Shown here: piece after piece, positions 30,953 to 59,371 of the stretch | Numbering within the stretch: position 1 is the first letter of the stretch | Layout of the letters: every line of letters begins with the position of its first letter | Source: Pseudomonadota bacterium | GTDB lineage: Bacteria; Pseudomonadota; Alphaproteobacteria; Rhizobiales; Xanthobacteraceae | Direction of reading: 5' to 3' | Assembly (NCBI GenBank): GCA_023404705.1 | Contig: JAEYAU010000092.1 | Span: forward strand, 7,527 to 71,526 | Length of the DNA: 64,000 nt | Made by a program: the position numbers and the translations under genes | Notes under the pieces: model-generated | What the model was told of the DNA's origin: nothing | The model's input: only the letters and a program-made list of their open reading frames with translations | The model's database searches: none

Positions 30953-30967
30953 ATACGGGAGCGGATC

Positions 30968-31714: not shown

Positions 31715-31724
31715 GGAGATCTCC

Positions 31725-34089: not shown

Positions 34090-35198
34090 CTGCCGAGCGT
34101 GGCGGTCGGCGAGGCGAGGGCGGCTTGCGGCAGCGGATATTGCGCGCTCGCCCGGATGCCGAGCCTGGCCGCGTGCATGGTGGCGATCGTCAGCACGAGG
34201 ATCGCGCCTCCCTGGTGCAGAAGCGCCAGCGAGATCGGCACCATGTAGAGCAGCGTGAGAATGCCGAGTGCGGCCTGCAGCGTCATCGCCAGGGCGAGTG
34301 CGAGCGCGCCGGCGGTCACCCGCGCGCTGGCGCGGCTGCGCAGGGCGTCCGCCGCATGCAGCAGGGCCGCGAACCACAGCAGATAGGCCATCATGCGGTG
34401 ATTGAACTGCACGGTGAGCACGTTCTCGAACAGATTTCGCCAGGCGGGCTCATGCATCAGGAGCTCAGAGGCCGGCGGCAGCAGATCGCCGTCCATCAGC
34501 GGCCAGGTGTTGTAGATGAGGCCCGCGTCGAGACCGGCGACCAGCGCCCCGAGATAGATCTGCAGCAGCACAAGCCCGAGCAGCACGACGGCGCTCACGC
34601 GTAAGCGGTCCGGAGCCCGTGACGGCCTCGAAGGCGTCATGCTTTGCGCGGTCCAGACGAGGGCCGTGAAGATCACGCAGGCGATCGTCAGATGCACGGC
34701 GAGCCGATACTGCGAGACGTCGACCCGGTGGGCCAGGCCGGAGGCGACCATCCACCAGCCGATCCCCCCCTGCAGAGCGCCGAGCGCGAAGATGCCCCAG
34801 AGCCGGCCCTTCAGACCCGGCCCGATCCAGCCCTTCCAGAGGAAGAAGAGAAACGGGAGCAGGAAGGCCGCGCCGATCGAGCGCCCGAGCAGCCGGTGTC
34901 CCCATTCCCACCAGAAGATCACCTTGAACTCGTCGAGCGTCATCCGCGCGTTCACCTTCTCGAACTGCGGGATGGTCTTGTACTTGTCGAACTCCGCCTG
35001 CCAGGCCGACTCGCTCAGCGGCGGCAGGGTGCCGGTGATCGGCTTCCATTCGACGATGGAAAGGCCGGATTCCGTGAGGCGGGTCGCGCCGCCGACCAGC
35101 ACGATGGCGAAGACCAGCGCGGCGACAACATAGAGCCACAGTCTGACGACGCGGCGGGAGGTCTCGGTTGGCTCGCTCATCTCAGGATCCTGCGACAT
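34086..35198 (-). CDS. ctaA: heme A synthase (COX15/CtaA)
   Basis: [18 protein letters not shown]..., [15 protein letters not shown] and QFNHRMMAY are COX15/CtaA hallmarks. The start is 35198 or 35180. Confidence 0.85.
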
Positions 35199-35261: not shown

Positions 35262-35696
35262 CTAGAATTGCTGCCTGGCCACGGGCATCGACTGCTCCGC
35301 CGCGGCGTTGATGATCAGCACGGCGATCTGGTCCATGCTGTCGATGTGCCCGCGAACGATCGGCGGCAATGCGCGGCGCAGAATGCTGCGCGCGGTCCGC
35401 GGCTTGCGCTCAGATTGGGCCAGCGCCTCGTCGCAGATCGCGATCATCTCGTCATGCTCCTGCCGATGGCAGCGGCAAAAGGCGGTGCCCGCGGCCTCGA
35501 CCAGCGCGGCCTCGTTCTCGAAATGCGTCCGCATCACCTTACGCAGCCGCGCGATGCGCAACGGCAGTGCGATGGGCGCACTGTGCATCACGCTCGCCCA
35601 GGCCTCGGCGATCGCGAAGTGATCGACGTCGATCGCGGTATGGCCCAGAGCGTGGCGCGGACCGATCAAGGGGCGCGCCGTCGTGACAGTCGACAT
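35262..35696 (-). CDS. hemerythrin-like metal-binding protein
   Basis: The ATG at 35696 follows GGAGAT. Motifs are GHTAIDVDHFAI, THFENEAALVE, HRQEHDEMI and RGHIDSMD, the bacteriohemerythrin pattern. Confidence 0.65.
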   Translation of the reverse strand: MSTVTTARPLIGPRHALGHTAIDVDHFAIAEAWASVMHSAPIALPLRIARLRKVMRTHFENEAALVEAAGTAFCRCHRQEHDEMIAICDEALAQSERKPRTARSILRRALPPIVRGHIDSMDQIAVLIINAAAEQSMPVARQQF

Positions 35697-35747
35697 GGGA
35701 TCTCCGATCCAGGGGCAGGACGCTGGCATGGCCTCGCGCCCCGCGGC

Positions 35748-35786: not shown

Positions 35787-36533
35787 TCAGGGCGTCGGCG
35801 GCAGATCCGGCCCGTTTCCTCCGGCGAGCTCCTCCAGCACGCGAGCGTCGGCGATATCCAGCTTGCGGCCTCGCACCGTCACGCCGAGGCCGCTGAGGCG
35901 GGCGAGCTCGCGCGACAGGGTCTCGGGCGCCATCGCGAGCCGTGCCGCGAGCACCGCCTTGTCATAGGGAAGCTGGATCGGCCCGCGGACCTCGCGATGC
36001 ATCGCGAGAATCCATCCAACCAGCCGTTGGAAGCTGGTGCGTGCGCGCAGGTTCTTCACCTCCCGCAGCAGGTCGTCCCAGCGCGCCGCGAGGTGCCGGT
36101 TCACGAAATCAGCGAATTCCCGCTCGGTCGCGAACAGCCTGCGGGCATCCGCGAGGCCGATGCGGCCCACGCAGGTTCTCTGCAGAACTCGCGCCGAGGT
36201 GAGCAGCGGTCCATCGCGGCAGATCGCGTCGACCGGCAGCAGAGTCGGTGCACGCTGGATGGTCAGCGTGATCTGCCGGCCCTCTGCGCTCGTGAAGATC
36301 TGGACGAGTCCTTCCAGCACCAGGAACAATGACTCGGCGGGCTCGCCTTCGCGGAGCAGCAGGCTACGCGCCGGGGCCTGCTCGATCGACGTTACGGCCA
36401 GAAGTGCATCAACCACCTTCGGTGACAAGGCGGCCAGCATCGGGCTGGCGCGGACCAGTTCGGACTTGCAATGCTCGGACGGACCGATGGGCGGTCCCGC
36501 GGCACTACGCATGAGGTGGAATCCGCGATCCAT
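35787..36533 (-). CDS. Crp/Fnr family transcriptional regulator (no N-terminal Cys cluster)
   Basis: It has a cNMP-binding-like domain (LLLREGEPAESLFLVLEGLVQIF) and an HTH with the E--SR recognition motif (MAPETLSRELARL). The start is uncertain: 36533, 36512 or 36440. Confidence 0.75.
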   Translation of the reverse strand: MDRGFHLMRSAAGPPIGPSEHCKSELVRASPMLAALSPKVVDALLAVTSIEQAPARSLLLREGEPAESLFLVLEGLVQIFTSAEGRQITLTIQRAPTLLPVDAICRDGPLLTSARVLQRTCVGRIGLADARRLFATEREFADFVNRHLAARWDDLLREVKNLRARTSFQRLVGWILAMHREVRGPIQLPYDKAVLAARLAMAPETLSRELARLSGLGVTVRGRKLDIADARVLEELAGGNGPDLPPTP

Positions 36534-36635
36534 GGTCCCTGGAAGTGGTGCTGGTAGGCAATATGCCCGTGCCGCGGCGTCACACGCTTGACCGCGGTCA
36601 ATCGCAATGCACGTCGGAGGCGGTCGGTGGCGAGT

Positions 36636-36649
36636 TTGACCTAGATCAA
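36636..36649. promoter_or_regulatory. FNR-type box TTGAC-ctag-ATCAA between the two divergent Crp/Fnr genes
   Basis: It has one mismatch to the consensus and is centred 90 nt from the 36733 ATG and about 110 nt from the 36533 ATG. Confidence 0.55.
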
Positions 36650-36732
36650 CGAATGCGTTGTCACGCCGCCTATATTGCGATGACCTGGGGGAAAGCGTGA
36701 ACCGCCCCCGAAGCGCGATCGAGAGAGCATTC

Positions 36733-37512
36733 ATGACCCGACGCGTCGAGCATTCTTCGAGTGTCCCGACACCCGTGGACCTGGCCGTCGTCTCCCGGAT
36801 CGCGGTGTTCCGTGGTTTGAAGCCGGATACGATCCAGCGGATCGTGGCCCCCGCGACGGTCGCGACACTGCGCGAACGTGAGGTGCTGTTCCGGCAGGGC
36901 GATCCCGCGGCGGCCTTCTTCATCGTCGTGGAAGGCTGGGTGAAGCTCTATCGGATCACGCTTTCGGGCGAGGAGACCGTGATTCACGTCCTCACCAAGG
37001 GCGACAGCTTCGCCGAGGCGGTCGCGTTCACGGGAGCCTCCTATCCGGCCACCGCCGAAGCGGTGAGCGACGCTCGCGTCGTGCGTATCCCGGCCGACCA
37101 CGTGGTGCGCTGCATCCGCGAGATGCCGGACATCGCGCTCGCCATGATCGCCTCCACCTCGCAGCATCTGCACCACCTGGTGCAACAGGTCGAGCAGCTC
37201 AAGGCGCAGAGCGGCGTGCAGCGCGTGGCGGAGTTCCTCGCCGGGCTCTGTCCCGCCGAGCAGGGCTCCGGCACGATCGCGCTGCCTTACGACAAGGTGC
37301 TGATCGCCGCGCGCCTCGGTCTCAAACCCGAATCGCTGTCGCGCGCCTTCGCCAAGCTGAGATCGTTCGGGGTCGACGTGCGGGCCTCGCATGTCGCGGT
37401 GCGCGACATCGCCAAGCTGCGGCAACTCGCGGCGGACGATCGCGGCGCGATCCGCGGCACGCTGCGGCTTCCCCAGCGCTCCGCCGAGCCGCTTGCGGCG
37501 CGTGGATCCTGA
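36733..37512 (+). CDS. Crp/Fnr family transcriptional regulator, FixK-like (no Cys cluster)
   Basis: The ATG at 36733 follows GAGAGAG. Motifs are VLFRQGDPAAAFFIVVEGWVKLYR and an HTH with LKPESLSRAFAKL (E--SR). Confidence 0.8.
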   Translation: MTRRVEHSSSVPTPVDLAVVSRIAVFRGLKPDTIQRIVAPATVATLREREVLFRQGDPAAAFFIVVEGWVKLYRITLSGEETVIHVLTKGDSFAEAVAFTGASYPATAEAVSDARVVRIPADHVVRCIREMPDIALAMIASTSQHLHHLVQQVEQLKAQSGVQRVAEFLAGLCPAEQGSGTIALPYDKVLIAARLGLKPESLSRAFAKLRSFGVDVRASHVAVRDIAKLRQLAADDRGAIRGTLRLPQRSAEPLAARGS

Positions 37513-37548: not shown

Positions 37549-37935
37549 TCACTTCTTCTTTCCGTCTGCGCCATACTGCGCCAGGAAGGACCAGAGGTCA
37601 TCGGCCTCCTTTTCGTTCTTGATGCCCGCAAAGACCATCTTGGTGCCCGGAATCTTCGCCTTCGGGTCCTTGATGTATTCCTTGAAGCTCGCTTCGTTCC
37701 AGGTGATGCCCGAGTTCTTGTTGGCATCCGTGTAGTTGTAGTTCGCGACGGTGCCGGACTTGCGGTCTTGGAGGCCGTTGAGAATCGGCCCGACCTTGTT
37801 CTTGGCGGTCTCGCCGACATCGTGGCACGCCGAGCACTTCTTGAACGACGTGGCCCCGGCGGTCACGTCGCCCGCGAGGGCCGTGGCGGCCGAGGCCACC
37901 AGCGCGAACGAAACGGTTGCTGCAATCTTGAACAT
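37549..37935 (-). CDS. class I c-type cytochrome (c2/c550-like), signal peptide
   Basis: MFKIAATVSFALVASAATALA signal peptide, heme motif CSACH and distal Met region GTKMVFAG. The RBS is GGAGAAGG. Confidence 0.85.
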   Translation of the reverse strand: MFKIAATVSFALVASAATALAGDVTAGATSFKKCSACHDVGETAKNKVGPILNGLQDRKSGTVANYNYTDANKNSGITWNEASFKEYIKDPKAKIPGTKMVFAGIKNEKEADDLWSFLAQYGADGKKK

Positions 37936-38447: not shown

Positions 38448-38951
38448 CTAGCGAAAGATGAACTCGCCGCTCTCTGCGCGGAAATCGATCACGAAAAGCT
38501 GGTCCGGAACAAGAGCGACGCGGCCGGCGCGCTGGTGGTCGAAGCCTTCCTGGCGCGGCGTGTCGCGCATGCGCACCGCGATCTCGTGGGCGCCGGCCGG
38601 CACCACGAAGCGCTCGTAGACGCGCGAGGGCCCGTCGCCCGCGATGCCGGTGGGCGGCAGCGCGGCGCGCAGCACCGACTTGCCGTCGATGTCGAGCTCG
38701 ACATGCAGCGGGCGGCGGCCGCGCGGGCACTCCTCGACGCGGCGCATGTTGGGCGGCAGCTTGGCGATCTCGGCGGGTGAGAGGCGCCGGCATTCGGCCT
38801 TGCGGTCGGCGCCGTGCACGAAGGTGAGCATGACGATCGCCGTGTCGGGCGGCGTCTGCCGGTAGACGGGGCGGTTAGCGAAGGCCGTTACGCCCGCGAA
38901 CAGTGCGAGGATGATGAGGAACTGGGCGAGCGTGCGCGCCATACCGATCAT
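38448..38951 (-). CDS. hypothetical membrane-anchored protein
   Basis: It has an N-terminal TM (LAQFLIILALFAGVTAF) followed by a ~140-aa soluble part. The ATG overlaps the stop of the upstream cytochrome b fusion (ATGA). Codons are GC3-rich. Confidence 0.55.
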   Translation of the reverse strand: MIGMARTLAQFLIILALFAGVTAFANRPVYRQTPPDTAIVMLTFVHGADRKAECRRLSPAEIAKLPPNMRRVEECPRGRRPLHVELDIDGKSVLRAALPPTGIAGDGPSRVYERFVVPAGAHEIAVRMRDTPRQEGFDHQRAGRVALVPDQLFVIDFRAESGEFIFR

Positions 38952-40540
38952 GGCGCGGTTCCTTCCGGCACGCGTTGCGGGGCGCTCGCCGGGGCGGGCG
39001 CGACCGAGGGCCGCGACTTGTGCATGACCGGCGGCGGCAGGGCCGCGACCTCTGCCGTGAAGGCGGCGCGCTCGCGCTCGAAGCGGGCGATCTCCAGGGC
39101 GGAGGCCCAGATCGTCTTCAGCCGCTCGCGCGGCACGCGGGCGCGCAAATAAGGATCGCGCGTTCCGGCGAAGCGCTGCTCGGTCCAGGCGACGCCGAGC
39201 CGGTTGTAACAGGCGCTCTCCGAGCAGCCCGCGACCACCACGCCCTCGGCGAGCTTGCGGCTGAGCACGTAGTCGATCATCGAGGGCGGCACCATGGCGA
39301 CGCAGGGGACCGGCACGACACCATCGGTGCCGCCGGCGCCGCCGCCGTGCTCACAGGCGAACACCAGCGCGCGGGCAGGGCCGGTGAGCTGGTCGGACGC
39401 TGCATGGGTGCGCTCGCGCAGCTCGCGCAGCGAATATTCCGGCAGGTCGATGCCGGTCTTGAGCTCCGCGGTGCGTCGGAACGGCGTCGAGGAGGGGCAG
39501 GAGCCGGTGCAGATGCCGCAGGAGACGCAGAGCGAGGGATTGACCTGGGCTTCCGTCGGGAAGGGCAGGTCATCGCTGCGCTTCACCATGCGGATCGCCT
39601 CGTAGGGGCAATCCTCGGCGCAGCGTCCGCAGCCGTTGCAGTGCTCGAGCGTGACCTCGGCGGCTTTAGCTCGCCGCAGCGGCGGCAGCCAGGGCATGAG
39701 ACCGAGCATGACCGAGAAGGCGGCGAGGAAGCCCCAGACCGCGCCTTTGCCCCAGAGATCCGTGAGCGGGTAGAGCGGCAGGAAGAACCAGTCGAGTCCG
39801 ACCTCGACGGGTGCGCGCGCGAGATCGACCTGGCCTTGCGAGAGCGCGGGCTTCCACAGCGAGACCGCGACCAGCGCGGCGAGCGTCATCAGCGCGAGCG
39901 CGCGCGGCGGATTCACCTTCGGGCGCGAGATGCGCAGGATGTGCACCCACATGATGAACAGCAGGAACAGCGGCACCGCGATGTGCATGAACACCATGAG
40001 GCTGAAGAAGCGGCTGGTGAGCGTGCCGGTGGCGACGAAATTACGCGCGATCGGCTCGCCGAAGATCGGCAGCCAGTCGAGCAGCTCGGAGGTGACGAGG
40101 GCGACGTACTGGGCGAGCTTGTCCCAGACCAGCCAATAGCCCGTGATGCCCGAGGCATAGAGCAGCCAGATGATCGGCAGGCCGGTGAGCCAGGAGAAGA
40201 AGCGGGCGCCGCGGTAATGGTCGTAGGCGAACTCGCGCAACAGATGCGTCACCACCATCACGACCATCAGGTCGGAGGCGTAGCGGTGCAGGCTGCGCAT
40301 CACGCCGGCGTGGAACCAGTAGTTCCGGCTGATGGTCTCGACCGACTGATAGGCCTGCTCGATGCCGGTATCGAAGAAGATGAACAGATAGATGCCGGTG
40401 ACCGCGACCACCCAGAAGAAGAAGAAGCCGAGCGCGCCGAGCTGCGCCAGCGGATTGAGGGCGGGGCCGAACAGGCGTTCGAACGGCCGTTCGATCGCCT
40501 CGAAGCCGTAGCGGAGGACCTTGCGTAGGAAAGCGATCAC
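38948..40540 (-). CDS. fusion protein: dihaem cytochrome b (N-terminal domain type) + 2x[4Fe-4S] ferredoxin + MvhD/FlpD-like domain
   Basis: Two H-x13-H pairs lie in TM helices (LHRYASDLMVVMVVTH and MHIAVPLFLLFIMWVH). The ferredoxin motifs are CNGCGRCAEDCP and CVSCGICTGSCP. The C-terminus is ALVFACEHGG...PCVAMV...VVVAGCSESACYNRLG. I prefer the GTG at 40540, which is preceded by GGAGA. The ORF track's longest start (GTG 40594) would overlap senC by 29 nt. Confidence 0.72.
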   Translation of the reverse strand: MIAFLRKVLRYGFEAIERPFERLFGPALNPLAQLGALGFFFFWVVAVTGIYLFIFFDTGIEQAYQSVETISRNYWFHAGVMRSLHRYASDLMVVMVVTHLLREFAYDHYRGARFFSWLTGLPIIWLLYASGITGYWLVWDKLAQYVALVTSELLDWLPIFGEPIARNFVATGTLTSRFFSLMVFMHIAVPLFLLFIMWVHILRISRPKVNPPRALALMTLAALVAVSLWKPALSQGQVDLARAPVEVGLDWFFLPLYPLTDLWGKGAVWGFLAAFSVMLGLMPWLPPLRRAKAAEVTLEHCNGCGRCAEDCPYEAIRMVKRSDDLPFPTEAQVNPSLCVSCGICTGSCPSSTPFRRTAELKTGIDLPEYSLRELRERTHAASDQLTGPARALVFACEHGGGAGGTDGVVPVPCVAMVPPSMIDYVLSRKLAEGVVVAGCSESACYNRLGVAWTEQRFAGTRDPYLRARVPRERLKTIWASALEIARFERERAAFTAEVAALPPPVMHKSRPSVAPAPASAPQRVPEGTAP

Positions 40541-40565
40541 CTGTGTCTCCGGTGCGATGCGGGGG

Positions 40566-41375
40566 TCATGCGGCGCCTCGCGCGCGCCCGGCACGTCGCC
40601 ATTCGCGCAGGAGCAGGCCGCCCATCAGCAAGAGGGAAATGGCCGCGATCACGCTGCCGAACGTCAGGCCGTAGTCGATGCGGTAGCGCCCCAATCCCGG
40701 ATCGTAGATCGTGCAGATGAACTTGATGCGGTCGATCAAGCCGTTGAACGTGAAGCTTGTCGTGGTGCCGTAGACCACGTCCTTGAGCGGCTCCATGAAC
40801 ATCTGGATGGGGAAATCCTCGCCGTAGACGTGGCGATAGATCCTGCCGTCGCGATCGAGGATCGTGGTCTGCGTCACGTGGTCGAAGCCGCCGGCGGCGG
40901 TCGCATAGCTGAAGCCGAGCTCGCGCAGCAGCACCGCGATGGTCGCGGGATCGCCGCTCGCGAGGCGCCAGTTGTCGAAGCGCACGCCCTGGGCGGACGC
41001 GAACTGGGTGAGACGGGCCGGCGTGTCGTTGCGGGCGTCGAAGCCGATGGTGAGGACAGTGAACTGATCGGCGCCGAACATGCGGCGCGCCTCGCCGACC
41101 GCGTCGATCAGGTGCTGGGTCGTGACCGGGCAGACCGAGGCGCACGCCGTGTAGACGAGGCTGATCACCAGCGGCTTGCCGCGCAGGCTGTCGAGCCGCA
41201 GGGGCGCGCCCTTCTGGTCGGTCAAGACGTGGTTGCCGAGGGTGCGGCCGATGGCGGCCTGGCTGCGCTCGACGGCCTGACGCGGATCGAGGCGCGCCTC
41301 GCGCGGCTCCGCCGCGTACGCAATGCCGGCGAGCCCGAGAACGAGCCCGGCCGCGACCGCGAGTGCGCGTGTCAT
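40566..41375 (-). CDS. senC: SCO1/SenC family copper chaperone with extra C-terminal TM extension
   Basis: It has a signal peptide MTRALAVAAGLVLGLAGIAYA, a thioredoxin fold with CASVCP and a downstream His (GFDHVTQTT), and a C-terminal hydrophobic tail FGSVIAAISLLLMGGLLL. The ATG overlaps the ctaB stop (ATGA). Confidence 0.78.
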   Translation of the reverse strand: MTRALAVAAGLVLGLAGIAYAAEPREARLDPRQAVERSQAAIGRTLGNHVLTDQKGAPLRLDSLRGKPLVISLVYTACASVCPVTTQHLIDAVGEARRMFGADQFTVLTIGFDARNDTPARLTQFASAQGVRFDNWRLASGDPATIAVLLRELGFSYATAAGGFDHVTQTTILDRDGRIYRHVYGEDFPIQMFMEPLKDVVYGTTTSFTFNGLIDRIKFICTIYDPGLGRYRIDYGLTFGSVIAAISLLLMGGLLLREWRRAGRARGAA

Positions 41376-42244
41376 GGCCGGGTCCCGAAGATCCCGTCGA
41401 GCACGACGCCGAGCACCAGCAATGCGAGCTGCAGCAGGGAGGCGAAGAAGTTCGCCATGGCGTTCTGCTTGGTCGGTGCGCGGTGCAACTGGATGCTCTT
41501 CCAGAGGAAGAATGCGCCGCCGCTCGCGGCGCCGAGGCCATAGAGCGCGCCGAGGCCGTACCAGAGCGGCACCAGCGAGATTGCGGTCAGCGCGGCCGTG
41601 TGGCTGAGCACCGCCGATGTCCAGGCGCGCGCCGGCACCACGATCGGCAGCATCGGCACGCCTGCCTTGGCATAGTCCTCGCCCTTCGCGGCGGCCAAGC
41701 TCCAGAAGTGCGGCGGCGTCCACAGGAACAGCACGACGGCGAGGACCACCGGCACGAGCTGCGGCGCCGGGTCGACGGCCGCCGCGCCGGCCAGCACCGC
41801 GAAGCTGCCGGCGAGTCCGCCGACCACGATGTTCCAGGTGCTGCGGCGCTTCAGCCACACCGTGTAGACGATGCCGTACGTGAAGGCGCCGAGAAAGACG
41901 AAAGCGGCCGCCATGCCGCCGCCGACCGCCCAGGCGAGGGCGAGGGAGGCTGCGAGCAGCGCGAGGAAGGCGGCGAGCCACCAGGGACTCGCCGCAAAGG
42001 CGCCGCTCGCGAAGGGACGCGACTTCGTCCGCCGCATGTGACGGTCGAGGTCGCGGTCATAGTAGTGATTGAAGGCGCCGGCTGCGCCGGACGCGCCGAG
42101 CACGGCGAGCGACAGGCCGAGCGCCTGCCACCAGGTCGGGGCAGGGCCGCTTGTCGCTGCCATGCCAGCGAGCGCGCTCGCCGCGATCGCTATTCCGATC
42201 CTGAGCTTCAGGAGCGAAACCGTCATGCGGACCGCGGCGAGCAT
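41372..42244 (-). CDS. ctaB: protoheme IX farnesyltransferase (heme O synthase)
   Basis: UbiA family motifs NHYYDRDLDRHMRRTKSRP and WTPPHFWSLA. The RBS is GGAGAAG. Confidence 0.85.
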   Translation of the reverse strand: MLAAVRMTVSLLKLRIGIAIAASALAGMAATSGPAPTWWQALGLSLAVLGASGAAGAFNHYYDRDLDRHMRRTKSRPFASGAFAASPWWLAAFLALLAASLALAWAVGGGMAAAFVFLGAFTYGIVYTVWLKRRSTWNIVVGGLAGSFAVLAGAAAVDPAPQLVPVVLAVVLFLWTPPHFWSLAAAKGEDYAKAGVPMLPIVVPARAWTSAVLSHTAALTAISLVPLWYGLGALYGLGAASGGAFFLWKSIQLHRAPTKQNAMANFFASLLQLALLVLGVVLDGIFGTRP

Positions 42245-42281: not shown

Positions 42282-44003
42282 TCAGCGGAACAGCCAGAGT
42301 TCCGAGAGATATTTCCAGTTGATGAAGTAGTAGAGGACGAACGACACGAAGAAGATGGTGACGAGCACGATCGTGCCCGGCAGCTTCACCGTGGCGTGGC
42401 TCCCGTAGTGCGAGGCGGCGGCGCCGCCGCCCTGATGGAGCGGGAAGGTGAGCTTGTGCCCGGCCGTGATCTTCTTGCCGAACAGCACGGTGCCGACCAC
42501 CACCACCACGTAGATGACGCCGCCCGCCGCCGCGAGGATCGCGAACACGCCGTTCAGTCCCATCATCAGGAAGGCGCCGGCCGAGTGCGCGAAGGAGATC
42601 GTCGCGTCACTGAAGGTGATGTCCCAGTGACGGCGTGGCACGCCGAGGGTGCCCGCGCCCATCATGAACATCGAGATGCCGGCGGCGCCGATGCCGAACA
42701 CATAGGGCTGCAGCTTGGCGAGCTTCGGCCACACGATCTCGCGCTGGAAGATCAAGGGGAGCACCAGGTAGGTGCCGCCCATGAAGGCGAGCGTGGTGCC
42801 GGCGACGACCGTGCCGTGGAAGTGGCCCGGCACGTAGATCGTGTTGTGCATCAGCACGTTGAGCTGCTCGGTGCCGAGCACCACGCCGGAGATGCCGCCG
42901 ATGAAGCCGAACATCACGAGCGAGAGGAACATGGCCGCGAAGGCCGGGTTGCCCCACGGTGCCTTGCGCAGCCACTCGAACACGCCCTTGGTGTAGCCGT
43001 TCTTGCGCTGGGCGGCTTCGATCGCGCCCGGCACGGTGAGGCCGTGGATCATCGATCCGAGCACCGCGAGATACATCATGTAGCTGGTATTGACGATCTT
43101 CCAGCTCGCCGTCATGCCGGGCTCGGCGAGCAGGTGATGCGCCGAGGCGAGCTGCAGGAACAGGATGTAGAGGAAGAACGCGGTGCGGCTCACCTTCTCG
43201 GAGAGCGGCTTGGCGCCGAGCAGCAGGGCCACCGTGAGATACCAGATCGAGACATGCGCCGAGACGTTGATCTGTTGCGACGAGTGACCCATCGCCCACC
43301 AGACGACCTTGTACATCAGCGGGTCGATGTCGCCGATCCATCCGAGCGACCAGAGCCAGGTCGGGATCAGGATGATGGCGCCGGACGCGATGGTGAAGAC
43401 TGCGATGATCGCGGCCGTCAGCGCGCCGAAGGTCACGAGCGGCATGGAGCCCTGATAGGTCTGCTCCTCCTTGGCGACCGCGAGGGTCGCGAAGAAGATG
43501 CCGACACCGATCAGCGCGCCGACGGCGAACAGGATCAGCCCCAGATAGAAGTTGGATTTCGCCATCATCGGCGGATAGGACGTGAACATCACGCTCGATT
43601 CGCCGCGCAGCACCTCGACATTGGTGAGCACGGCACCCACCACCATCAGCACGAAGCCGAGCCAGGCGATCTTCGGTGCGGGCAGGCGGCAGTTGAGCAG
43701 GACCGCGGAGGCGAAGTAGAGCACCGCGATCTCGAAGAAGATGATCCAGAACAGCAGCACATTGGCGCCGTGTCCGGTGAGCACGAGGTAGAACCACTCG
43801 GCCGGCAGCAGGTGAACGGCCGGCCAGCGTGTGAGCGCGACCAGCAGGCCCATGAGGCCGCCGAGCGCCAGGAAGATCACGGCCGCGACCGCATTGGCCT
43901 TGATCAGCGCTTGCGCCGCGGCGTCGACTTTGAGTCCCGTGTAGGGACAGGTGCGGAAATCCGCGGCTCTGCCGCCGACACCGACGATGGTTTCAGCAGT
44001 CAT
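42282..44003 (-). CDS. heme-copper oxidase superfamily subunit I, B-family-like, lacking the cross-link Tyr (candidate NO reductase-type enzyme)
   Basis: LTGHGANVLLF (low-spin heme His), WWAMGHSSQQ (CuB His, with Gln where A/B-family oxidases have Tyr at His+4), LASAHHLL (CuB His pair) and PGHFHGTVV (heme His pair). Confidence 0.82.
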   Translation of the reverse strand: MTAETIVGVGGRAADFRTCPYTGLKVDAAAQALIKANAVAAVIFLALGGLMGLLVALTRWPAVHLLPAEWFYLVLTGHGANVLLFWIIFFEIAVLYFASAVLLNCRLPAPKIAWLGFVLMVVGAVLTNVEVLRGESSVMFTSYPPMMAKSNFYLGLILFAVGALIGVGIFFATLAVAKEEQTYQGSMPLVTFGALTAAIIAVFTIASGAIILIPTWLWSLGWIGDIDPLMYKVVWWAMGHSSQQINVSAHVSIWYLTVALLLGAKPLSEKVSRTAFFLYILFLQLASAHHLLAEPGMTASWKIVNTSYMMYLAVLGSMIHGLTVPGAIEAAQRKNGYTKGVFEWLRKAPWGNPAFAAMFLSLVMFGFIGGISGVVLGTEQLNVLMHNTIYVPGHFHGTVVAGTTLAFMGGTYLVLPLIFQREIVWPKLAKLQPYVFGIGAAGISMFMMGAGTLGVPRRHWDITFSDATISFAHSAGAFLMMGLNGVFAILAAAGGVIYVVVVVGTVLFGKKITAGHKLTFPLHQGGGAAASHYGSHATVKLPGTIVLVTIFFVSFVLYYFINWKYLSELWLFR

Positions 44004-44006: not shown

Positions 44007-44582
44007 TTATCTCCCATCGGCGAGGCGTTCGCCGGCCTCGGCCCGCTTCGGTTCCGTGACGTAGATCTTGCCGGTCATCGTGTGATGACCGATCCCGCAG
44101 AACTCGTTGCAGACGATCCCGAACTCGCCGGACTCCGTCGGCGTCAGGGTGATCACGTGCTCGTAGCCGGGATGGACCTGGATGTTGATGTTGGTCGGCT
44201 GCAGCGAGAAGCCGTGCTGCCAGTCGATCGAGGAGAGATGGAAGCGATAGCTCTTGCCCTTCTCGAGCTCGAGAATCGGCCACCAGTTCCACAGCCGGCC
44301 CAGCATGTAGACGTCGGTATTGGCGGGCGGCTTGACCACCGGCACGCCCTTTTCCTCGCGTACCGTGTACTTCTTGGTGAATTCCTCGACCTTCGTCTCA
44401 TAGCGCGAAGGCGCGATGCGATAGGCCTCGCGGCTCAGATTCTGGCCACCGATGAAGTGCCAGGCGATCATGAAGCCGAACATGAACAGGCCCCAGAGAA
44501 AGGCGATGACCGTCCAGGTCAGCTCGACTCTCTCGATGGGTTCGTTCCACCAGACTCGTTGTTCGGGTGGTGTGACGGCCAT
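44007..44582 (-). CDS. heme-copper oxidase subunit II with intact CuA site
   Basis: It has one N-terminal TM and a cupredoxin domain with WQHGF...CNEFCGIGHHTM (H, C, C, H and M ligands). Its stop lies 3 nt before the subunit I ATG. Confidence 0.82.
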   Translation of the reverse strand: MAVTPPEQRVWWNEPIERVELTWTVIAFLWGLFMFGFMIAWHFIGGQNLSREAYRIAPSRYETKVEEFTKKYTVREEKGVPVVKPPANTDVYMLGRLWNWWPILELEKGKSYRFHLSSIDWQHGFSLQPTNINIQVHPGYEHVITLTPTESGEFGIVCNEFCGIGHHTMTGKIYVTEPKRAEAGERLADGR

Positions 44583-44619: not shown

Positions 44620-44784
44620 TCAGTTCGCGAGCGGGATGGATGCGACTTCCATCACGCCCCAGAGGATGTAGAGGACCGTCGGAATGGTGACGCCGACGAA
44701 GAGCAGCAGGAACGGATTGTCGAGAATCTGCTGCATCATGGGGATGCGCGCTTGCGTCTGGTCCGTCGGATTTGGCGTCGTCAT
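44620..44784 (-). CDS. small single-TM protein (possible accessory oxidase subunit)
   Basis: ATG at 44784 (MTTPNPTDQTQARIPMMQQILDNPFLLLFVGVTIPTVLYILWGV...). It is the first gene of the operon. The RBS is AGAGGGG. Confidence 0.45.
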   Translation of the reverse strand: MTTPNPTDQTQARIPMMQQILDNPFLLLFVGVTIPTVLYILWGVMEVASIPLAN

Positions 44785-44892: not shown

Positions 44893-45354
44893 ATGCGTAT
44901 TTCACCCGAACCGTTTTGGATGAAACCATTCGGGGCGATGTCGCCGCGCTTGCGCTGGAGCGCTGCCGGTCTCTCGGCGGTAGTCGCGCTCGCGCTCGCG
45001 AGCGTTGCGCTGTGGCCGATTCCGGCGAAACCGAAGGAGCTTCTGCTGCTCTATGTCGGCGCCGAGGACTGCGCGCCGTGCCGAGCCTGGCAAAAAGGCG
45101 AGGGCGCGCAATTCCGCGCCACGTCCGAGTTCGCGCGCGTGCCCTATCGCGAGGTGAAGTCGGCGACCTTGCGCGATCTGCTCAAGGACGAGAACTGGCC
45201 GGAGGATCTGCGGATCTACCGCGATCAGCTCGGTGCCGGCGCGGGCGTGCCGATGTGGCTCGTCATTGCCGACAATCGAATCATCGAACGCAGCTTCGGC
45301 GAAAGCCAATGGCGAACGAACACATTGCCGAAGGTCAGGGCGCTGCTGCGCTGA
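44893..45354 (+). CDS. membrane-anchored thioredoxin-fold protein with CxxC (CAPC)
   Basis: Signal anchor LSAVVALALASVALW followed by LLLLYVGAEDCAPCRAW. The start is uncertain: 44893, 44920 or 44938. Confidence 0.5.
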   Translation: MRISPEPFWMKPFGAMSPRLRWSAAGLSAVVALALASVALWPIPAKPKELLLLYVGAEDCAPCRAWQKGEGAQFRATSEFARVPYREVKSATLRDLLKDENWPEDLRIYRDQLGAGAGVPMWLVIADNRIIERSFGESQWRTNTLPKVRALLR

Positions 45355-45565: not shown

Positions 45566-48127
45566 TCACAACTGCAGGCGGCGCCGCCAGAGCGGCTTGA
45601 TCAGCTCGAGGATCAGCAAGAGTGCGAGCCCGGCACCGAGGGTGAGCGCGAGATCATCGTGATGCAACGGGCCGAACCGGAACAGAGTGCTCGCCGCGGG
45701 CCAGACCAGCGTCAGGCCGAGGGTCGTGGCGACCACCAGCAGGATCAACGCGAGGATGGGATTCGGACGTCTGAATGCCGCCAGCAGTGACGTGCTGAAG
45801 GAGCGGTTGATCAGAATAAGACTGACGATGCAGACCACGAGAGAGAAGAAGGTGATCGCGCGCGCCTCGTCCGGCGGCATGCCGCGCGCGAGCGCCACGA
45901 CATAGATCGCCGCGCACAGGGCAAAGGCCAGCGCGCCTTGCAGGACACTCCAGGCGATCAGCGGCCAGGAAAAGAGCGGCTCGTCAGGCGGGCGAGGCGG
46001 ACGGTTCATGACGTCCGCTTCTTCGGTCTCGGCTTCGAAAACCAGCGTGCACACCGGGTCGATCACCATCTCGAGAAACGCGATATGAATCGGACCGAAG
46101 ATGATAGGCAGTCCGAACACGAGCGGCAGAAGGGCGAGGCCGGCGATCGGCACATGCACCGCGAAGATGAATGCCATGGCCTTGCGCAGATTGTCGTAGA
46201 TGCGACGGCCGAGGCGCACCGCGGTCACAATCGATCCAAAATCGTCGTCGAGCAGAACGATGGCGGAGGCCTCGCGCGCCACGTCGGTCCCGCGGCCACC
46301 CATGGCCACGCCGATGTGGGCGGCCTTGAGGGATGGCGCGTCGTTCACGCCGTCGCCCGTCATGGCGACGATATCGCCTCGGCCCTTCAGGGCCTGAACG
46401 ATGCGCAGCTTCTGCTCCGGCATGATGCGCGCGAACACGCTGGTGCGTCCGGCACGGCGCGCAAGCTCGCCGTCGGATAGAGCCTCCACATCCTCCCCGG
46501 TCACGACCTCGGCGGCATCGATCCCGGCCTCGGCCGCAATGGCGCGCGCGGTGGCCGGATAGTCCCCGGTGATCATCACGACGCGGATGCCGGCGGAACG
46601 GCATTCGCGAACGGCCGCGGGCACACTTGGCCGCAACGGATCGGCAAGCCCGACAAGACCGAGAAAGTCGAAACGAAAGCCAAGGGGCGACGCGGGAAGG
46701 CTCTCGCCCACATGGGTCGCCTTCGCCACGGCCAGCACACGTAACCCTTCGCGGGCCATGGCATCGACGGCGTGATGCATCGCGTCTGTGGCGGCACTGT
46801 CGAGACCGCAAAGTCGCGCAATGCTCTCCGGCGCCCCCTTGCTTGCAATCGCCAAGCCGGACTCGTTGTCGTCTCCCTTCCAGGCATGCGTCACGGCGAG
46901 GAGTTCGGGCCGAAGACCGTACCCGTGCACGAGCTTCCATTGAGAATCCAGTGCTCGCGCGGACCCAAGCCCGTCGCGCGCGAAGGCATGAAAGGCCTTC
47001 TCCATCGGATCGAACGGCTCGGGGGCGCTTGCCAGCAAGCCATAAGTGGCCAGCTCGTGGAACGGGCCGGGAATGCCCGCCGCCATGCCGTCGCGGGACC
47101 GGAAGACATTGCCGTCCGGCAGCCGGAGCTCCACGATCGACATCCGGTTTTCGGTGAGGGTGCCGGTCTTGTCCGTGCAGAGCACGGTGGCAGAGCCGAG
47201 CGTCTCGATCGACGCGGCGCGTCGCGTCAGCACGCGTGCGCGCGATATTCGCCAGGCGCCCATCGCCATGAACACGGTCAGCACGACCGGAAATTCCTCC
47301 GGCAGCATCGACATGCCAATGGCGATGCCCGCAAGGAGCGCTTCCAGCCAGCCGCCGCGCAACGTGCAGTAGAGGACGATTGCGACCAGGCTCACGGCCG
47401 CGCCTCCAAGGGCGGCAAGCCGCACCAGGCGCCTGGTCTGGAGCTGCAGCCGCGGCGGCTCCGCTTCAAGCCCGTGAAGCGATTGCCCGATCTTGCCGAT
47501 CTCACTGCGCGCGCCTGTCGACAGGACCTCGGCGAGGCCGCTTCCCCGCACGACCAATGATCCCGAATAGACGAACGGCAAGTCATCGCCGCCAGGCCGC
47601 GCCGGGCCGGCCGGCAGGGTCGTGGCCGCAACCTTGCGGACAGGCACCGATTCTCCGGTGAGCAGGGATTCATCCACTTGGACGTCGTGGCTCTCGCGCA
47701 GCGCGGCATCGGCAGGAACCCGGTCGCCCTCGGAAAGGACCACGAGGTCGCCGCGCACCACCTCGCGGCCGGGGATGCGCTTGCGCTCCCCATCGCGAAC
47801 CACCAGGGCACGCGGGCTTGTGAGATCTCGGAGCGCCTCGAGCACCCGTTCGGTGCGCGTCTCTTGCACGACCGTGATCGCGACCGACAGCATCGCGAAG
47901 GTGAGGAGGATCAGCGATTCCTTGAGGTCGCCGAGCAGGAGATAGATGAGCCCTGCGCCGAGCAGGAGGAGGAGCATCGGCTCGCGCAAGACCTCCAGGA
48001 CGATCCGCAGCGCCGTGCGCCGGTCGGCTCGCGGCAACTCATTGAAGCCCTCGGATTTGAGGCGCAGCTCGGCCTCGGCCACGCTGAGGCCGAGCCTGTT
48101 CGGGGGCGCGTCCTCGTCATTGCTCAT
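45566..48127 (-). CDS. cation-transporting P-type ATPase (P2-type, Ca2+/Mg2+-like)
   Basis: An 853-aa protein with TGESVPV, CTDKTGTLTEN, MITGD and TGDGVNDAPSLK. The ATG overlaps the FNT gene stop (ATGA). Confidence 0.88.
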   Translation of the reverse strand: MSNDEDAPPNRLGLSVAEAELRLKSEGFNELPRADRRTALRIVLEVLREPMLLLLLGAGLIYLLLGDLKESLILLTFAMLSVAITVVQETRTERVLEALRDLTSPRALVVRDGERKRIPGREVVRGDLVVLSEGDRVPADAALRESHDVQVDESLLTGESVPVRKVAATTLPAGPARPGGDDLPFVYSGSLVVRGSGLAEVLSTGARSEIGKIGQSLHGLEAEPPRLQLQTRRLVRLAALGGAAVSLVAIVLYCTLRGGWLEALLAGIAIGMSMLPEEFPVVLTVFMAMGAWRISRARVLTRRAASIETLGSATVLCTDKTGTLTENRMSIVELRLPDGNVFRSRDGMAAGIPGPFHELATYGLLASAPEPFDPMEKAFHAFARDGLGSARALDSQWKLVHGYGLRPELLAVTHAWKGDDNESGLAIASKGAPESIARLCGLDSAATDAMHHAVDAMAREGLRVLAVAKATHVGESLPASPLGFRFDFLGLVGLADPLRPSVPAAVRECRSAGIRVVMITGDYPATARAIAAEAGIDAAEVVTGEDVEALSDGELARRAGRTSVFARIMPEQKLRIVQALKGRGDIVAMTGDGVNDAPSLKAAHIGVAMGGRGTDVAREASAIVLLDDDFGSIVTAVRLGRRIYDNLRKAMAFIFAVHVPIAGLALLPLVFGLPIIFGPIHIAFLEMVIDPVCTLVFEAETEEADVMNRPPRPPDEPLFSWPLIAWSVLQGALAFALCAAIYVVALARGMPPDEARAITFFSLVVCIVSLILINRSFSTSLLAAFRRPNPILALILLVVATTLGLTLVWPAASTLFRFGPLHHDDLALTLGAGLALLLILELIKPLWRRRLQL

Positions 48128-49008
48128 GCGTCGGAAGGCGTCCGGCTCGGGCTGGGTCGGAGGTAGACAAACCAGTAGACGACGCCGACAAGGACACCGC
48201 CACCCACAACATTACCGATCGTCACCGGGATCAAGCTCCAGAAGAATGCGGGCCAGCTCAGATCAGCCACATGGGCAGTCGAGACCGAGCCCAGGGCGCT
48301 CGGTCCCCAATCCCTGATCATCATGCCGAGCGGTATGAGGTACATGTTCGCCACCGAGTGCTCAAATCCGGCGGCGACAAACGCTGCGACCGGAAACAGA
48401 ACCGCGAGCACCTTGTCGGCGGTCGTGCGCGCGCCGATGGACAGCCAGACCGCGAGGCAGACTAGAACATTGCAGAGGATGCCCAGGAAGAATGCCCGGC
48501 CGAATGGAAGGGCGGCTTTGGAGGACGCGATCGATACGGCGATCTCGGCGACGACACCATCACCCGACAAGTGCTGACCCGAAAGGAAGACGAGGACCGC
48601 GGTTCCGAACGCGCCGACAAAGTTGCCGACATAGACGATGAGCCATGCCCGCAGCATTTCCAGGCCGGTGATCTTGCGCGCAGCCAAGGCCATGACCATC
48701 AGTGTGTTGCCGGTGAACAATTCGGCTCCGCCGACAACCACCAGGATCAGCCCCAGCGAGAACACGAGCCCGGCGAAGAGTCGCGTGATGCCGAACGGAA
48801 GCACCCCATCGGCGCCGGCCATGACGGTGGTGGCGAACATCGCTCCAAGGCCGATGAACGCCCCCGCCAACATCGACAGAACGACAAGTCTCGAGAGGTC
48901 CAGGCGCGCCTTTTGGGCGCCGATCGTCTCTGCCTTCTGCGCGATCTCGGCCGGAAGAAGCGCATCGATCACGAAGCGTGGTTCTGGAGGGCGCATATTC
49001 TCATCCAT
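48124..49008 (-). CDS. formate/nitrite transporter (FNT) family channel
   Basis: GAELFTGN, FFLGILCNVLVCLAVW and AAGFEHSVANMY are FNT signatures. The substrate cannot be told from the sequence alone. Confidence 0.85.
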   Translation of the reverse strand: MDENMRPPEPRFVIDALLPAEIAQKAETIGAQKARLDLSRLVVLSMLAGAFIGLGAMFATTVMAGADGVLPFGITRLFAGLVFSLGLILVVVGGAELFTGNTLMVMALAARKITGLEMLRAWLIVYVGNFVGAFGTAVLVFLSGQHLSGDGVVAEIAVSIASSKAALPFGRAFFLGILCNVLVCLAVWLSIGARTTADKVLAVLFPVAAFVAAGFEHSVANMYLIPLGMMIRDWGPSALGSVSTAHVADLSWPAFFWSLIPVTIGNVVGGGVLVGVVYWFVYLRPSPSRTPSDA

Positions 49009-49773: not shown

Positions 49774-49860
49774 GCCTGCCGGACCCAATCCCTTCTCCCG
49801 GCGTTGATGCGTCGTGGCGGTGCGGCATGGGACCGCCACCTGACCTTCAAAGGAGGGACC

Positions 49861-51045
49861 TTGAGCAGGCCAGCAGCGCGCCTCCTGATCGTGGCGCTGA
49901 TCGCCATCTTTGCGGTGGCGGGCGGATATATGTGGCTGCGGCGCGACACCGGCCGGGCCGCGCCGGCGCCTGCCGCCGCGCAGCCGCCCGAGGTCGGCGT
50001 CACGCAGGTGCAGGCCGCCGAAGTGCCGCTGCCGGCCGAATATGCGGGCCGTGTCGTGGGTCTGCGCAACGTGGAGGTGCGAGCGCGGGTCGGAGGTGTC
50101 CTGCTGGAGCGCGCCTTCCAGGAGGGCACGCGGGTGAAGCAGGGCGACGCGCTGTTTCGCCTCGATCCCGCGCCCTATCGGGTCGCGCTCGACCGCGCCA
50201 ATGCGCAGCTCGCGCAGGCGCAGGCGACGCAGCGCCAGGCGGTGGAGAATTTCGCGCGCATCGAGGAGCTCTCCCGCCGCAATGTCGCGACCGAAAAGCA
50301 GCTCGATGATGCACGCGCCGCGCGCGATCAGGCTGACGCTTCGGTGAAGCTCGCCCGGGCCGAGGTCGAAGCCGCCAATCTCAATCTCGGCTACACCACC
50401 ATCACGGCGCCGGTTGCGGGCAGCACCAGCCTCGATGTGCCGGCGGTCGGCACGCTGGTGCAGGCGCAGCAGACGCTGCTCACGACCATCACGCCGCTCG
50501 ATCCCGCCTATGTGAGCTTCTCCGTCACGGACGAGGAATATCGCGGCTTCCGGGCGATGAACGAGACGCGTGCCACGCCTATTCGCGCAGAAGATTTGTC
50601 GGTCACGCTGACCTTCGGAGCCGGCGCGCCTTATGCGCAGCGCGGACGCATCGACGTCTCGGCGAACAATGTCGATGCCAGCACCGGCACGATCCAGATC
50701 CGGGCGACCTTTCCCAATCCCGACGGTGTGCTGCTGCCGGGCCAGTTCGTGCGGCTGCAGATCAGCGGTGTGACGCTGCCGGATGCGATCAGCATTCCCA
50801 AGCGCGCCGTCTCGCAGGGGCCGCAAGGTCCGTTCGTCTACGTCCTGGATGCCGGCGACATCGCGCGGGCGCGGCCGATCCGGCTCGGGCAGGAGCTCGC
50901 GACCGACTGGGTCGTGCAGGACGGCCTCAAGAGCGGCGAGCGCGTCGTGGTGGACGGCCTGATCCGCGTGCGCCCGGGCGCGCCCGTCAAGCCGGCCGCA
51001 GTGGCCGAACGGGCCGGGCAGGGCACCACCGGAGCCGCGCAGTGA
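49861..51045 (+). CDS. RND efflux periplasmic adaptor (membrane fusion protein)
   Basis: Typical MFP coiled-coil and lipoyl motifs ([28 protein letters not shown]). I prefer the TTG at 49861, directly preceded by AAGGAGGG. The ORF track start is 49804. Confidence 0.85.
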
Positions 51046-54000: not shown

Positions 54001-54173
54001 TCAGCAGCGGCGCTGGGTCGGCCAGCCGACATTCGATCGGCACCGGCGTCGTCGGCGGCATGCTGGCCGCGACCGGCCTCGCGATCCTCTTCGTTCCCTA
54101 CTTCTTCACGCTGCTCACGCGGCGACGCCGCGGCGAAGCGCCGGCGCAGCAGGTGAATGCGCCCGCGGAGTAG
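51042..54173 (+). CDS. RND multidrug efflux transporter (AcrB/MexB family)
   Basis: A 1043-aa protein starting [23 protein letters not shown], with 12 TM segments and two large periplasmic loops. Its GTG start overlaps the adaptor stop. Confidence 0.9.
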
Positions 54174-56631: not shown

Positions 56632-56640
56632 GGGATTTCC

Positions 56641-57252: not shown

Positions 57253-57254
57253 CC

Positions 57255-57692: not shown

Positions 57693-57720
57693 TCATGGCA
57701 GCGCGCCTCAACATTCGATC

Positions 57721-57859: not shown

Positions 57860-57894
57860 GGTCTTGGGCCGCGGCAAGCAAGGACGAACCGCGT

Positions 57895-59369: not shown

Positions 59370-59371
59370 TC

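Follow-up and report, generated by a model that had tools for sequence, protein, structure and literature searches.

We examined a 64,000-nucleotide stretch of DNA from a Pseudomonadota bacterium of the Xanthobacteraceae (contig JAEYAU010000092.1, positions 7,527 to 71,526; hereafter the window), in which the minus strand encodes a two-subunit relative of the B-family oxygen reductases together with a set of accessory genes. Judged from its sequence, the enzyme very probably belongs to the known eNOR family, of which it would be an ordinary representative, and it is likely that reduction of nitric oxide (NO) is its physiological reaction. Its catalytic subunit keeps every metal ligand and has glutamine (Q244) at the position of the tyrosine that is cross-linked to histidine in the oxidases. 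The initial annotation of this DNA had pointed out the missing tyrosine and suggested NO-reductase chemistry from it, a suggestion that is supported: Gln at this position is the published eNOR diagnostic, and the purified eNOR of Rhodothermus marinus reduces NO. The eNOR family is already named and characterised, which the initial annotation did not recognise. Positions of all features are collected in Table 1.

Active site of subunit I

Subunit I (573 aa) matches the Pfam COX1 model with 214 bits, and none of the NCBIfam oxidase models comes near its cutoff (the top one, CtaD, scores 62 bits against a cutoff of 671). A phmmer alignment pairs it with the ba3 oxidase of T. thermophilus (E = 1e-42). 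As initially annotated, all six canonical histidines are present, namely H78 (LTGHG), H240 (MGHSS), H289/H290 (AHHLL) and H394/H396 (GHFHG), and they align to the ba3 ligands H72, H233, H282/H283 and H384/H386. By this alignment, H78 and H396 are predicted to ligate the low-spin heme (His/His ligation), H394 the high-spin heme, and H240, H289 and H290 metal B; with all three metal-B histidines kept, there is no His to Asp swap of the gNOR type.

The query segment WWAMGHSSQQINV pairs without gaps with FWWTGHPIVYFWL of ba3. Q244, four residues after the first metal-B histidine, thus stands opposite the cross-linked Y237 of ba3, Q243 opposite V236 and N246 opposite W239. The two adjacent glutamines initially reported here are confirmed.

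The T. thermophilus ba3 oxidase (1EHK/1XME/3S8F) is the best match of the query in sequence and structure, and the two share the six histidines, the CuA site, a small open reading frame (ORF) upstream of subunit II and the K-path residues S309 and Y248 (ba3 numbering). The query differs from ba3 by the substitutions Y237 to Q, V236 to Q, W239 to N, Y244 to V, T312 (in the K path) to H and Y133 to F, and by an extra invariant glutamate, E91, in helix II; overall identity is 25–29%. Whereas ba3 reduces O2, the query is expected to reduce NO.

An AlphaFold2 model of subunit I was built on an alignment of 62 sequences, and is confident, with a predicted local distance difference test score (pLDDT) of 86 and a predicted template modelling score (pTM) of 0.89. 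Its top structural matches are the T. thermophilus ba3 oxidases (template modelling score, TM, 0.77); the best matches in the PDB also include 7DEG, another terminal oxidase of the heme-copper type. No cNOR or qNOR was found among the 50 best structural matches or among the 33 PDB sequence matches of subunit I.

Conservation of the glutamine and phylogeny

Among the 120 nearest homologs (85–92% identity; Bradyrhizobium, Pseudolabrys, Xanthobacteraceae and other metagenome-assembled genomes), 115 carry GHSSQQIN and the other five GHSTQQIN, which makes GH-x-x-Q-Q-[IV]-N common to all 120. Wider relatives were taken from a search over 1.8 billion cluster representatives. In this search the nearest lineages all read GH-x-x-Q-[Q/Y]-[IV]-N, as opposed to GHP[LIV]VYFW in true B-family oxidases; we refer to the two forms, with Gln or Tyr at position 244, as Q-Q and Q-Y. 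The Q-Q form is found in Anaerolineales (GHPAQQVN), in the haloarchaeon Natrarchaeobius (GHGTQQINL) and on denitrification megaplasmids of Thermus thermophilus (GHGAQQVN), and Q244 is 100% conserved in a cross-phylum clade of 57 sequences.

In a neighbour-joining tree of an 87-sequence alignment (100 bootstraps), the Q-Q sequences form a single clade (100/100), Q-Q and Q-Y sequences together are split from the B-family oxidases (100/100), and the Q-Y sequences are paraphyletic, lying between the B family and the Q-Q clade. The query is 39–92% identical to members of the Q-Q clade, 36–45% to Q-Y sequences and 25–29% to B-family oxidases. Of the two glutamines, Q243 is the more deeply conserved, being present also in the archaeal relatives that have Tyr at 244. 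The change from Tyr to Gln is thus conserved across the clade and is not a chance event.

The same data bear on the possibility that the gene is a degenerate, catalytically dead remnant of an oxidase, as the term 'degenerate B family oxidases' in an earlier survey (PMC6431628) would have it. We regard this as extremely improbable: all metal ligands are invariant, identities of 85–92% extend over many Bradyrhizobium/Xanthobacteraceae genomes, a genome scan found at least 598 relatives in species-representative genomes, and the gene belongs to a conserved operon of eight genes that is dedicated to the enzyme, includes its assembly factors and has a regulated promoter.

The Tyr-retaining archaeal relatives (Hodarchaeales/Kariarchaeaceae and Thermoproteota; sequences P0133, P0134, P0128, P0143 and P0271–P0285, locus L087) group with eNOR against the B family with the bootstrap support given above. 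They have Tyr at 244 (GH-T-A-Q-Y-I-N) and lack Y231, Y308, Y311, E379 and Q/N284 of the query. A 'K family' of O2 reductases has been described that clusters with eNOR and shares gas-channel residues with it (bioRxiv 10.1101/592808). The Q-Y archaeal group probably corresponds to this family, and it is a plausible intermediate on the path from oxidase to NO reductase.

Pocket residues and the search for another tyrosine

Six residues, Q243, N246, H320, E91, Y279 and A249, are common to the Q-Q and Q-Y lineages and absent from B-family oxidases. Q243 occupies a position that we take to be the inner end of the O2 channel. Its ba3 counterpart, V236, is the residue mutated in PDB entries 4G70–4G7S. 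Specific to the Q-Q clade are Q244, Q/N284, Y231, Y308, Y311, E379, F71, L285 and S287; among these, Y231, Y308, Y311, E379 and Q284 reach 95–100% in the Q-Q clade and are seldom or never found in Q-Y and B-family sequences. E379 is opposite ba3 F369, near the D372/H376 region, and Q/N284 lies five residues ahead of the HH pair. The pocket is thus predicted to be amide-rich (Q243, Q244, N246 and Q/N284) in place of hydrophobic residues and Tyr. The polar channel residues appear, from their distribution, to be older than the loss of the tyrosine, and this order would fit the published view that such NO reductases evolved from oxidases, as well as the description of the K family cited above. Along the K path, S317 (ba3 S309), Y255 (ba3 Y248) and H320 are each 100% conserved in the clade, and 98% of its members have T or S at position 323.

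If the enzyme were still an O2 reductase, that is, a high-affinity B-type-like oxidase for microoxic conditions with NO reduction as a side reaction, some other residue would have to give the fourth electron. Candidates, on grounds of conservation, are the clade-specific Y231, Y308 and Y311, which are 98–100% conserved in the Q-Q clade. The fold and the nearest solved structures, which are those of ba3 oxidases, would suit an oxidase, and for the analogous sNOR of N. europaea (Nitrosomonas), transcription data have been used to argue that it reduces O2. Against this stand the 100% conservation of Gln at the cross-link position and the lack of a Tyr six residues before HH, the site in helix VII at which C-family oxidases have theirs; the query has L283 there and the clade Leu/Ile. 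Y279 is not compensatory, because it is common to the Tyr-bearing relatives. In addition, Murali et al. (2024, PMC11214002) report that a migrated Tyr is missing from models of these NO reductase families, O2 reduction is absent in the R. marinus eNOR, the Magnetospirillum enzyme has no activity as a cytochrome c oxidase (as stated by the title of reference 37 in Murali et al.), and some relatives adjoin nirS (see below). We treat a migrated active-site Tyr in the query as a small residual uncertainty, and we consider an O2-reducing enzyme improbable.

Probable assignment to the eNOR family

Gln at the position of the cross-linked Tyr is the diagnostic of eNOR (PMC8756737 Table A4 and Fig. 6, after Hemp & Gennis 2008); the residue there is Asn in sNOR and bNOR, Glu in cNOR and qNOR, and Asp in gNOR (PMC8756737 Table A4). 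The family has been defined in taxa that include Halobacteria, Anaerolineales and Proteobacteria (PMC8756737 section 3.3), all three of which are found in the Q-Q clade. Purified R. marinus eNOR reduced NO at 0.68 per s and did not reduce O2 with any of several donors; it carries heme As, and many eNOR operons hold ctaA (PMC11214002). The genomic proxy for heme A-type cofactors in the query is ctaB in the operon and ctaA downstream of it. The 'cytochrome a1-like hemoprotein' of Magnetospirillum is also an eNOR (PMC11214002). Degli Esposti's 'ba3-a1', which has SCO in its operon (Magnetospirillum) and has lost the catalytic Tyr (PMC6431628), was later renamed eNOR. The ba3 S309 equivalent is retained in eNOR and bNOR and missing in sNOR, and some eNORs ligate the low-spin heme by His/Lys (Murali et al. 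2024). An operon of eNOR II, eNOR I, heme o synthase, sco1 and an eNOR scaffold protein is described as very common (2026 Ferrigenium preprint), and the order II, I, heme o synthase, sco1 in the window is the same.

Compared with the family (type R. marinus Rmar_0161; M. magnetotacticum 'ba3-a1'), the query is alike in the Gln, the three metal-B histidines, the CuA-bearing subunit II, the B-family ancestry, the K-channel Ser, the presence of ctaB, ctaA and sco nearby, the gene order, and relatives in Halobacteria, Anaerolineales, Thermus and Proteobacteria. Among the features that can be read from the genes, we found no defining one in which the two differ. Within the family, an eNOR-type gene on a Thermus plasmid (TTHNAR1 plasmid 4, NZ_LR027520.1) is 44.6% identical to the query and has GHFK, with Lys for the second helix X His, giving His/Lys ligation of the low-spin heme in contrast to His/His in the query. 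This copy adjoins nirS, a multicopper-oxidase-domain gene, a cytochrome c gene and an Rrf2 regulator gene.

Other NO reductase families were considered and rejected. sNOR was suspected at first from the norSY-senC-like gene order and the kinship with Nitrobacter and Bradyrhizobium, and was ruled out by Gln instead of Asn and by the presence of the S309 equivalent. bNOR was ruled out by Q244, which is not Asn, and by relatives that come from Proteobacteria, Chloroflexi, Thermus and archaea rather than from Bacillales only. In the case of cNOR, qNOR and nNOR, the query has Gln and not the Glu that acts there as a fourth FeB ligand, His/His ligation of the low-spin heme (as against His/Met in nNOR), and a CuA subunit. 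gNOR, whose subunit II is without the CuA ligands, does not agree with the presence of H240, H289 and H290 and a complete CuA site, nor a B-family O2 reductase with the replacement of the cross-linked Tyr by Gln.

The rejected families are related to the query to different degrees. Like the query, sNOR (norSY-senC of ammonia oxidisers) and bNOR (Bacillus azotoformans qCuANOR) derive from the B family, have a CuA subunit II and have lost the Tyr, and sNOR has a senC/sco gene in its cluster; by their published descriptions they are set apart by Asn at the Tyr position, with sNOR lacking the S309 equivalent and bNOR being confined to Bacillales. With cNOR and qNOR (NorCB, NorZ), the query has in common the expected net reaction, a centre in which a heme is paired with a non-heme metal held by three His, and the absence of a cross-linked Tyr. 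They differ in Glu at the Tyr position, in their C-family ancestry and in having a cytochrome c subunit (cNOR) or a quinol site (qNOR) instead of CuA.

The tyrosines Y231, Y308 and Y311 and the N. europaea precedent weigh against an NO-reducing eNOR, and so do several further points. The family membership is drawn from diagnostic features and the taxa of the relatives, and the neighbour-joining tree was built without the reference eNORs of R. marinus (Rmar_0161) and Magnetospirillum. Biochemistry within the family consists of the R. marinus enzyme, plus the oxidase-negative Magnetospirillum protein as the sole proteobacterial case; metal B may be Fe or Cu, even in R. marinus eNOR. Finally, no nir, nor or nos genes were found in the 64-kb window.

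Subunit II and electron entry

Subunit II consists of a cupredoxin domain that a single N-terminal segment anchors in the membrane. The COX2, CoxB and NosZ cupredoxin models match it below their cutoffs, and its best PDB match is the ba3 subunit II (E = 1.5e-15). The full CuA site that the initial annotation had read in this protein is borne out, with H123, C158, E160, C162, H166 and M169 all in register with ba3 subunit II; E160 is opposite ba3 Q151, a backbone ligand.

A 54-aa membrane protein with a single helix is encoded directly upstream of subunit II. It has no Pfam match, and loci of Anaerolineales, Thermus and Asgard archaea likewise have a small ORF ahead of the subunit II gene. Its position suggests that it probably corresponds to the small subunit IIa of B-type oxidases.

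From the CuA site, the initial annotation had concluded that electrons enter from the co-encoded cytochrome c. The CuA site is complete and the c550/CycA-like periplasmic cytochrome is a plausible donor to it, but not a conserved one, as it was found at the same position in just nine of 82 loci; seven of these nine are species-representative loci (of 80), and the other two are contigs of the organism from which the window comes. The gene scores 204 bits with NF043008 (Cyt550_Brdyrhiz), below the cutoff of 240.

Operon and accessory genes

The operon reads, on the minus strand, 54-aa protein, subunit II, subunit I, CtaB, SCO1, a cytochrome b-FeS fusion protein, orf167, bacteriohemerythrin and cytochrome c550, and several of the junctions overlap by 4 bp (including that of ctaB with the SCO1 gene). 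Heme o synthase catalyses the first step toward heme A-type cofactors, and SCO1 presumably serves CuA assembly. The fusion protein combines a di-heme cytochrome b part (two H-x13-H motifs) with two CxxCxxCxxxC motifs for [4Fe-4S] clusters and a C-terminal MvhD/FlpD-like domain with four Cys, and has two further predicted transmembrane helices beyond the cytochrome b part. The true start of its gene is probably near 40540. In public records it is named only 'cytochrome b N-terminal domain-containing protein', and it may conduct electrons between eNOR and either the cytoplasm or the quinol pool. orf167 has no Pfam or NCBIfam match and is a candidate for the 'eNOR scaffold protein of unknown function' of the Ferrigenium preprint. 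The bacteriohemerythrin is a candidate O2/NO-binding or sensing partner. A second hemerythrin-like gene stands directly upstream of ctaA, and we observe that the two O2/NO-binding candidates adjoin the O2-dependent heme A pathway.

Synteny was assessed by tblastn against 82 loci, i.e., 80 species-representative loci (the best 80 of at least 598 relatives; Alpha- and Gammaproteobacteria, 67–87% identity) and two contigs of the window's own organism. The counts for each gene are included in Table 1. A plasmid of Defluviimonas has the same eight genes under generic RefSeq names. Outside the Proteobacteria, an Anaerolineales locus reads cytochrome c, small ORF, II, I, DsbD-like, Cu-ATPase, cytochrome b+Fer4 and CtaA. 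A Q-Y locus of an Asgard archaeon is limited to the small ORF and the two subunit genes, without ctaB, sco or cytochrome b-FeS genes. The occurrence of a cytochrome b-[Fe-S] gene with eNOR has been called 'rather unusual' (2026 Ferrigenium preprint); contrary to this label, the gene appears to be the rule in Proteobacteria (71 of 82 loci). The eNOR literature mentions the cytochrome b-FeS-MvhD fusion, orf167 and hemerythrin of the proteobacterial operon only in passing.

This three-gene module (fusion, orf167 and hemerythrin) is the most interesting side observation of the analysis. It is conceivable, at rather long odds, that eNOR in Proteobacteria and at least some Chloroflexi is part of a fixed module of these three genes and not a free-standing two-subunit enzyme, with the fusion protein shuttling electrons between cytoplasmic Fe-S or quinol and cytochrome c/CuA, and the hemerythrin buffering or sensing trace O2 (or NO) for heme A synthesis. 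If true, this would address how eNOR matures and is fed during denitrification.

The unexplained module, found in 66–71 of 82 loci, could also be tied to another chemistry of N-oxides or small molecules, such as NO dismutation, nitrite or N2O reduction, or NO scavenging or signalling, in which the fusion and the hemerythrin would take part and the enzyme would not serve as a respiratory NO reductase. The unusual pocket (Q243, Q244, N246, Q/N284 and E379), the low reported kcat of R. marinus eNOR and the lack of nir or nos genes in the window would agree with this. The only family member that has been assayed, on the other hand, turns NO into N2O, NOD and putative N2O-reductase families relate to qNOR/cNOR and not to the B family according to the literature, and no sequence feature specifically indicates another substrate; we hold such a chemistry to be quite improbable, and NO reduction by an eNOR is the reading that we retain.

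Several genes around the operon were noted in passing. Divergent from it lies a 153-aa ORF with a signal- or anchor-like N-terminus and a CAPC motif and without a Pfam match, which is kept opposite the operon in both contigs of the organism itself and in its seven closest relatives among the 80 loci. Given these features, the protein may have a thioredoxin-like fold; a role as a TlpA-like thiol reductase for CuA assembly would be speculation. Directly upstream of the operon and on the same strand, a formate/nitrite transporter (FNT) gene overlaps a non-HMA P-type cation ATPase gene by 4 bp. This pairing occurs only in contigs of the same organism (L001 and L002) and is absent in the 80 related species.

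Regulation and denitrification context

The motif TTGA-N6-TCAA occurs five times in the window, as compared to 0.17 expected, and one of these perfect FNR/FixK-type boxes precedes the operon. Of 74 related loci, 44 have a perfect box no more than 350 bp ahead of the operon. In the window, two more lie between a divergent pair of genes for Crp/FNR-family regulators, of which the one on the plus strand matches FtrB-like NCBIfam models below cutoff. Together, these sites point to expression of the operon from an FNR/FixK-type promoter at low O2 and/or NO, which would be consistent with the microoxic expression reported for eNOR (PMC11214002). Such a promoter would suit the low-O2 oxidase considered above equally well, and the O2 requirement of ctaA and the co-encoded hemerythrin may likewise be counted in favour of an oxidase.

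nirS (cd1 nitrite reductase; about 50% identical to Thermus NirS) is found within 9 kb of the operon in nine of the 80 related loci, and the two closest relatives of the window organism (L003 and L036) both have it beside the eNOR cluster. nirS-like genes of about 27% identity, which are possibly nirN/nirF paralogs, are present in seven more loci.

Proposed mechanism

In the mechanism that we propose, the enzyme would be a B-family-derived protein whose His-Tyr cofactor, needed for four-electron reduction of O2, became Gln. A periplasmic cytochrome c, possibly the co-encoded c550, would reduce CuA in subunit II. Going by ligand conservation, electrons would then pass through the low-spin heme (H78, H396) to the high-spin heme/metal-B site (H394; H240, H289, H290), at which 2 NO + 2 e- + 2 H+ would give N2O + H2O, by analogy with the activity of purified R. 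marinus eNOR. Protons would probably be taken from the cytoplasm via an analogue of the K channel (Y255, H320, S317, T323), which would make the reaction electrogenic, as hypothesised in the literature. CtaB and CtaA would provide the heme A-type cofactors and SCO1 would load CuA, with transcription expected from the FNR/FixK-type promoter at low O2 and/or NO.

Table 1. Features of the eNOR locus and its surroundings. Positions refer to the window unless another locus is named; the last column gives the number of the 82 compared loci in which the gene was found.
Feature	Position	Strand	Evidence or remark	Loci (of 82)
Perfect FNR/FixK-type box TTGACCATAGTCAA	44845..44858	read on -	centre ~67 bp ahead of the operon's first start codon (ATG)
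54-aa single-helix membrane protein	44620..44784	-	directly upstream of subunit II; gene call on public contigs	78 (small ORF upstream of subunit II)
eNOR subunit II	44007..44582	-	membrane anchor and cupredoxin domain	80
CuA ligand H123, subunit II	44214-44216	-	translation verified
CuA ligands C158-M169 CNEFCGIGHHTM, subunit II	44076-44111	-	translation verified
eNOR subunit I, catalytic heme/non-heme-metal subunit	42282..44003	-	573 aa, ATG start
Active-site motif G239-H-S-S-Q-Q-I-N246, helix VI	43266..43289	-	translation GHSSQQIN
Heme o synthase CtaB/CyoE	41372..42244	-	TIGR01473, 243 bits (cutoff 210)	65 (after subunit I)
SCO1/SenC copper chaperone, 269 aa	40566..41375	-	Pfam SCO1-SenC, E = 6e-16	77
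Cytochrome b-2x[4Fe-4S]-MvhD/FlpD fusion	38948..40594	-	Pfam Cytochrome_B, Fer4, FlpD	71
orf167, 167 aa, N-terminal membrane anchor	38448..38951	-	overlaps upstream gene by 4 bp	69
Bacteriohemerythrin, 134 aa	37972..38376	-	NF033749, 101 bits (cutoff 84)	66 (same position)
Periplasmic class I cytochrome c, c550/CycA-like	37549..37935	-	Pfam Cytochrom_C; CSACH motif, signal peptide	9 (same position)
Crp/FNR-family regulator, divergent pair	36658-37512	+	cNMP_binding and HTH_Crp_2 domains; start uncertain
Crp/FNR-family regulator, divergent pair	~35787-36527	-	cNMP_binding and HTH_Crp_2 domains
Perfect FNR boxes between the Crp/FNR genes	36588-36601, 36636-36649
Second hemerythrin-like gene	35262-35729	-	Hemerythrin, E = 1.8e-5; directly upstream of ctaA
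Degenerate box TTGATGTAGCGCAA	35238-35251		between second hemerythrin-like gene and ctaA
Heme a synthase CtaA/COX15	34086-35198	-	COX15-CtaA, E = 6.5e-113; 7 kb downstream, same strand	4 (within 9 kb)
Perfect box at start of a gene of unknown function	32947-32960
Perfect box at start of an acyl-CoA dehydrogenase gene	15432-15445
Divergent 153-aa ORF	44893-45354	+	CAPC motif
FNT and P-type cation ATPase genes	45566-49008	-	directly upstream of operon
Rest of window: housekeeping/catabolism (RND efflux pair, start of nuo (complex I) operon, xanthine-dehydrogenase-type molybdoenzyme, acyl-CoA ligases/dehydrogenases, enoyl-CoA hydratase, fatty-acid metabolism)	49804-54173 (+), 56068-64000 (+), 24455-32621
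nirS (cd1 nitrite reductase)	L003 10101-11651; L036 9749-10486; also L026, L030, L035, L050, L055, L067, L073
Thermus plasmid eNOR-type gene and its neighbours	L084 2898-11143		NZ_LR027520.1
Cytochrome b+Fer4 protein, Anaerolineales eNOR locus	L085 13036-15093

Annotation and implications

The eNOR family is systematically misannotated, and there is no NCBIfam model covering it. Neither subunit I nor subunit II is matched by an NCBIfam model at cutoff, and the public names are generic because no model reaches its cutoff; examples of misannotated subunit I include P0002, P0028, P0029, P0048, P0062 and P0104, among others, and subunit II is often a 'hypothetical protein' in public records. A full-text literature search found a single paper that mentions both eNOR and Bradyrhizobium, without connecting them, and a literature search on the B. 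japonicum locus tags bll4479-4481 found nothing.

The practical value of the assignment lies in annotation and ecology more than in discovery: the generic name would conceal a likely N2O-producing enzyme of abundant soil bacteria. The accessory module and the FNR control give a concrete handle on the supply of electrons and heme A to eNOR. A Tyr-bearing sister lineage that already has Q243, N246, E91 and H320 suggests an order for the conversion of an oxidase into an NO reductase. If eNOR is electrogenic as proposed, it would alter the energy yield that is assumed for denitrification in these organisms.

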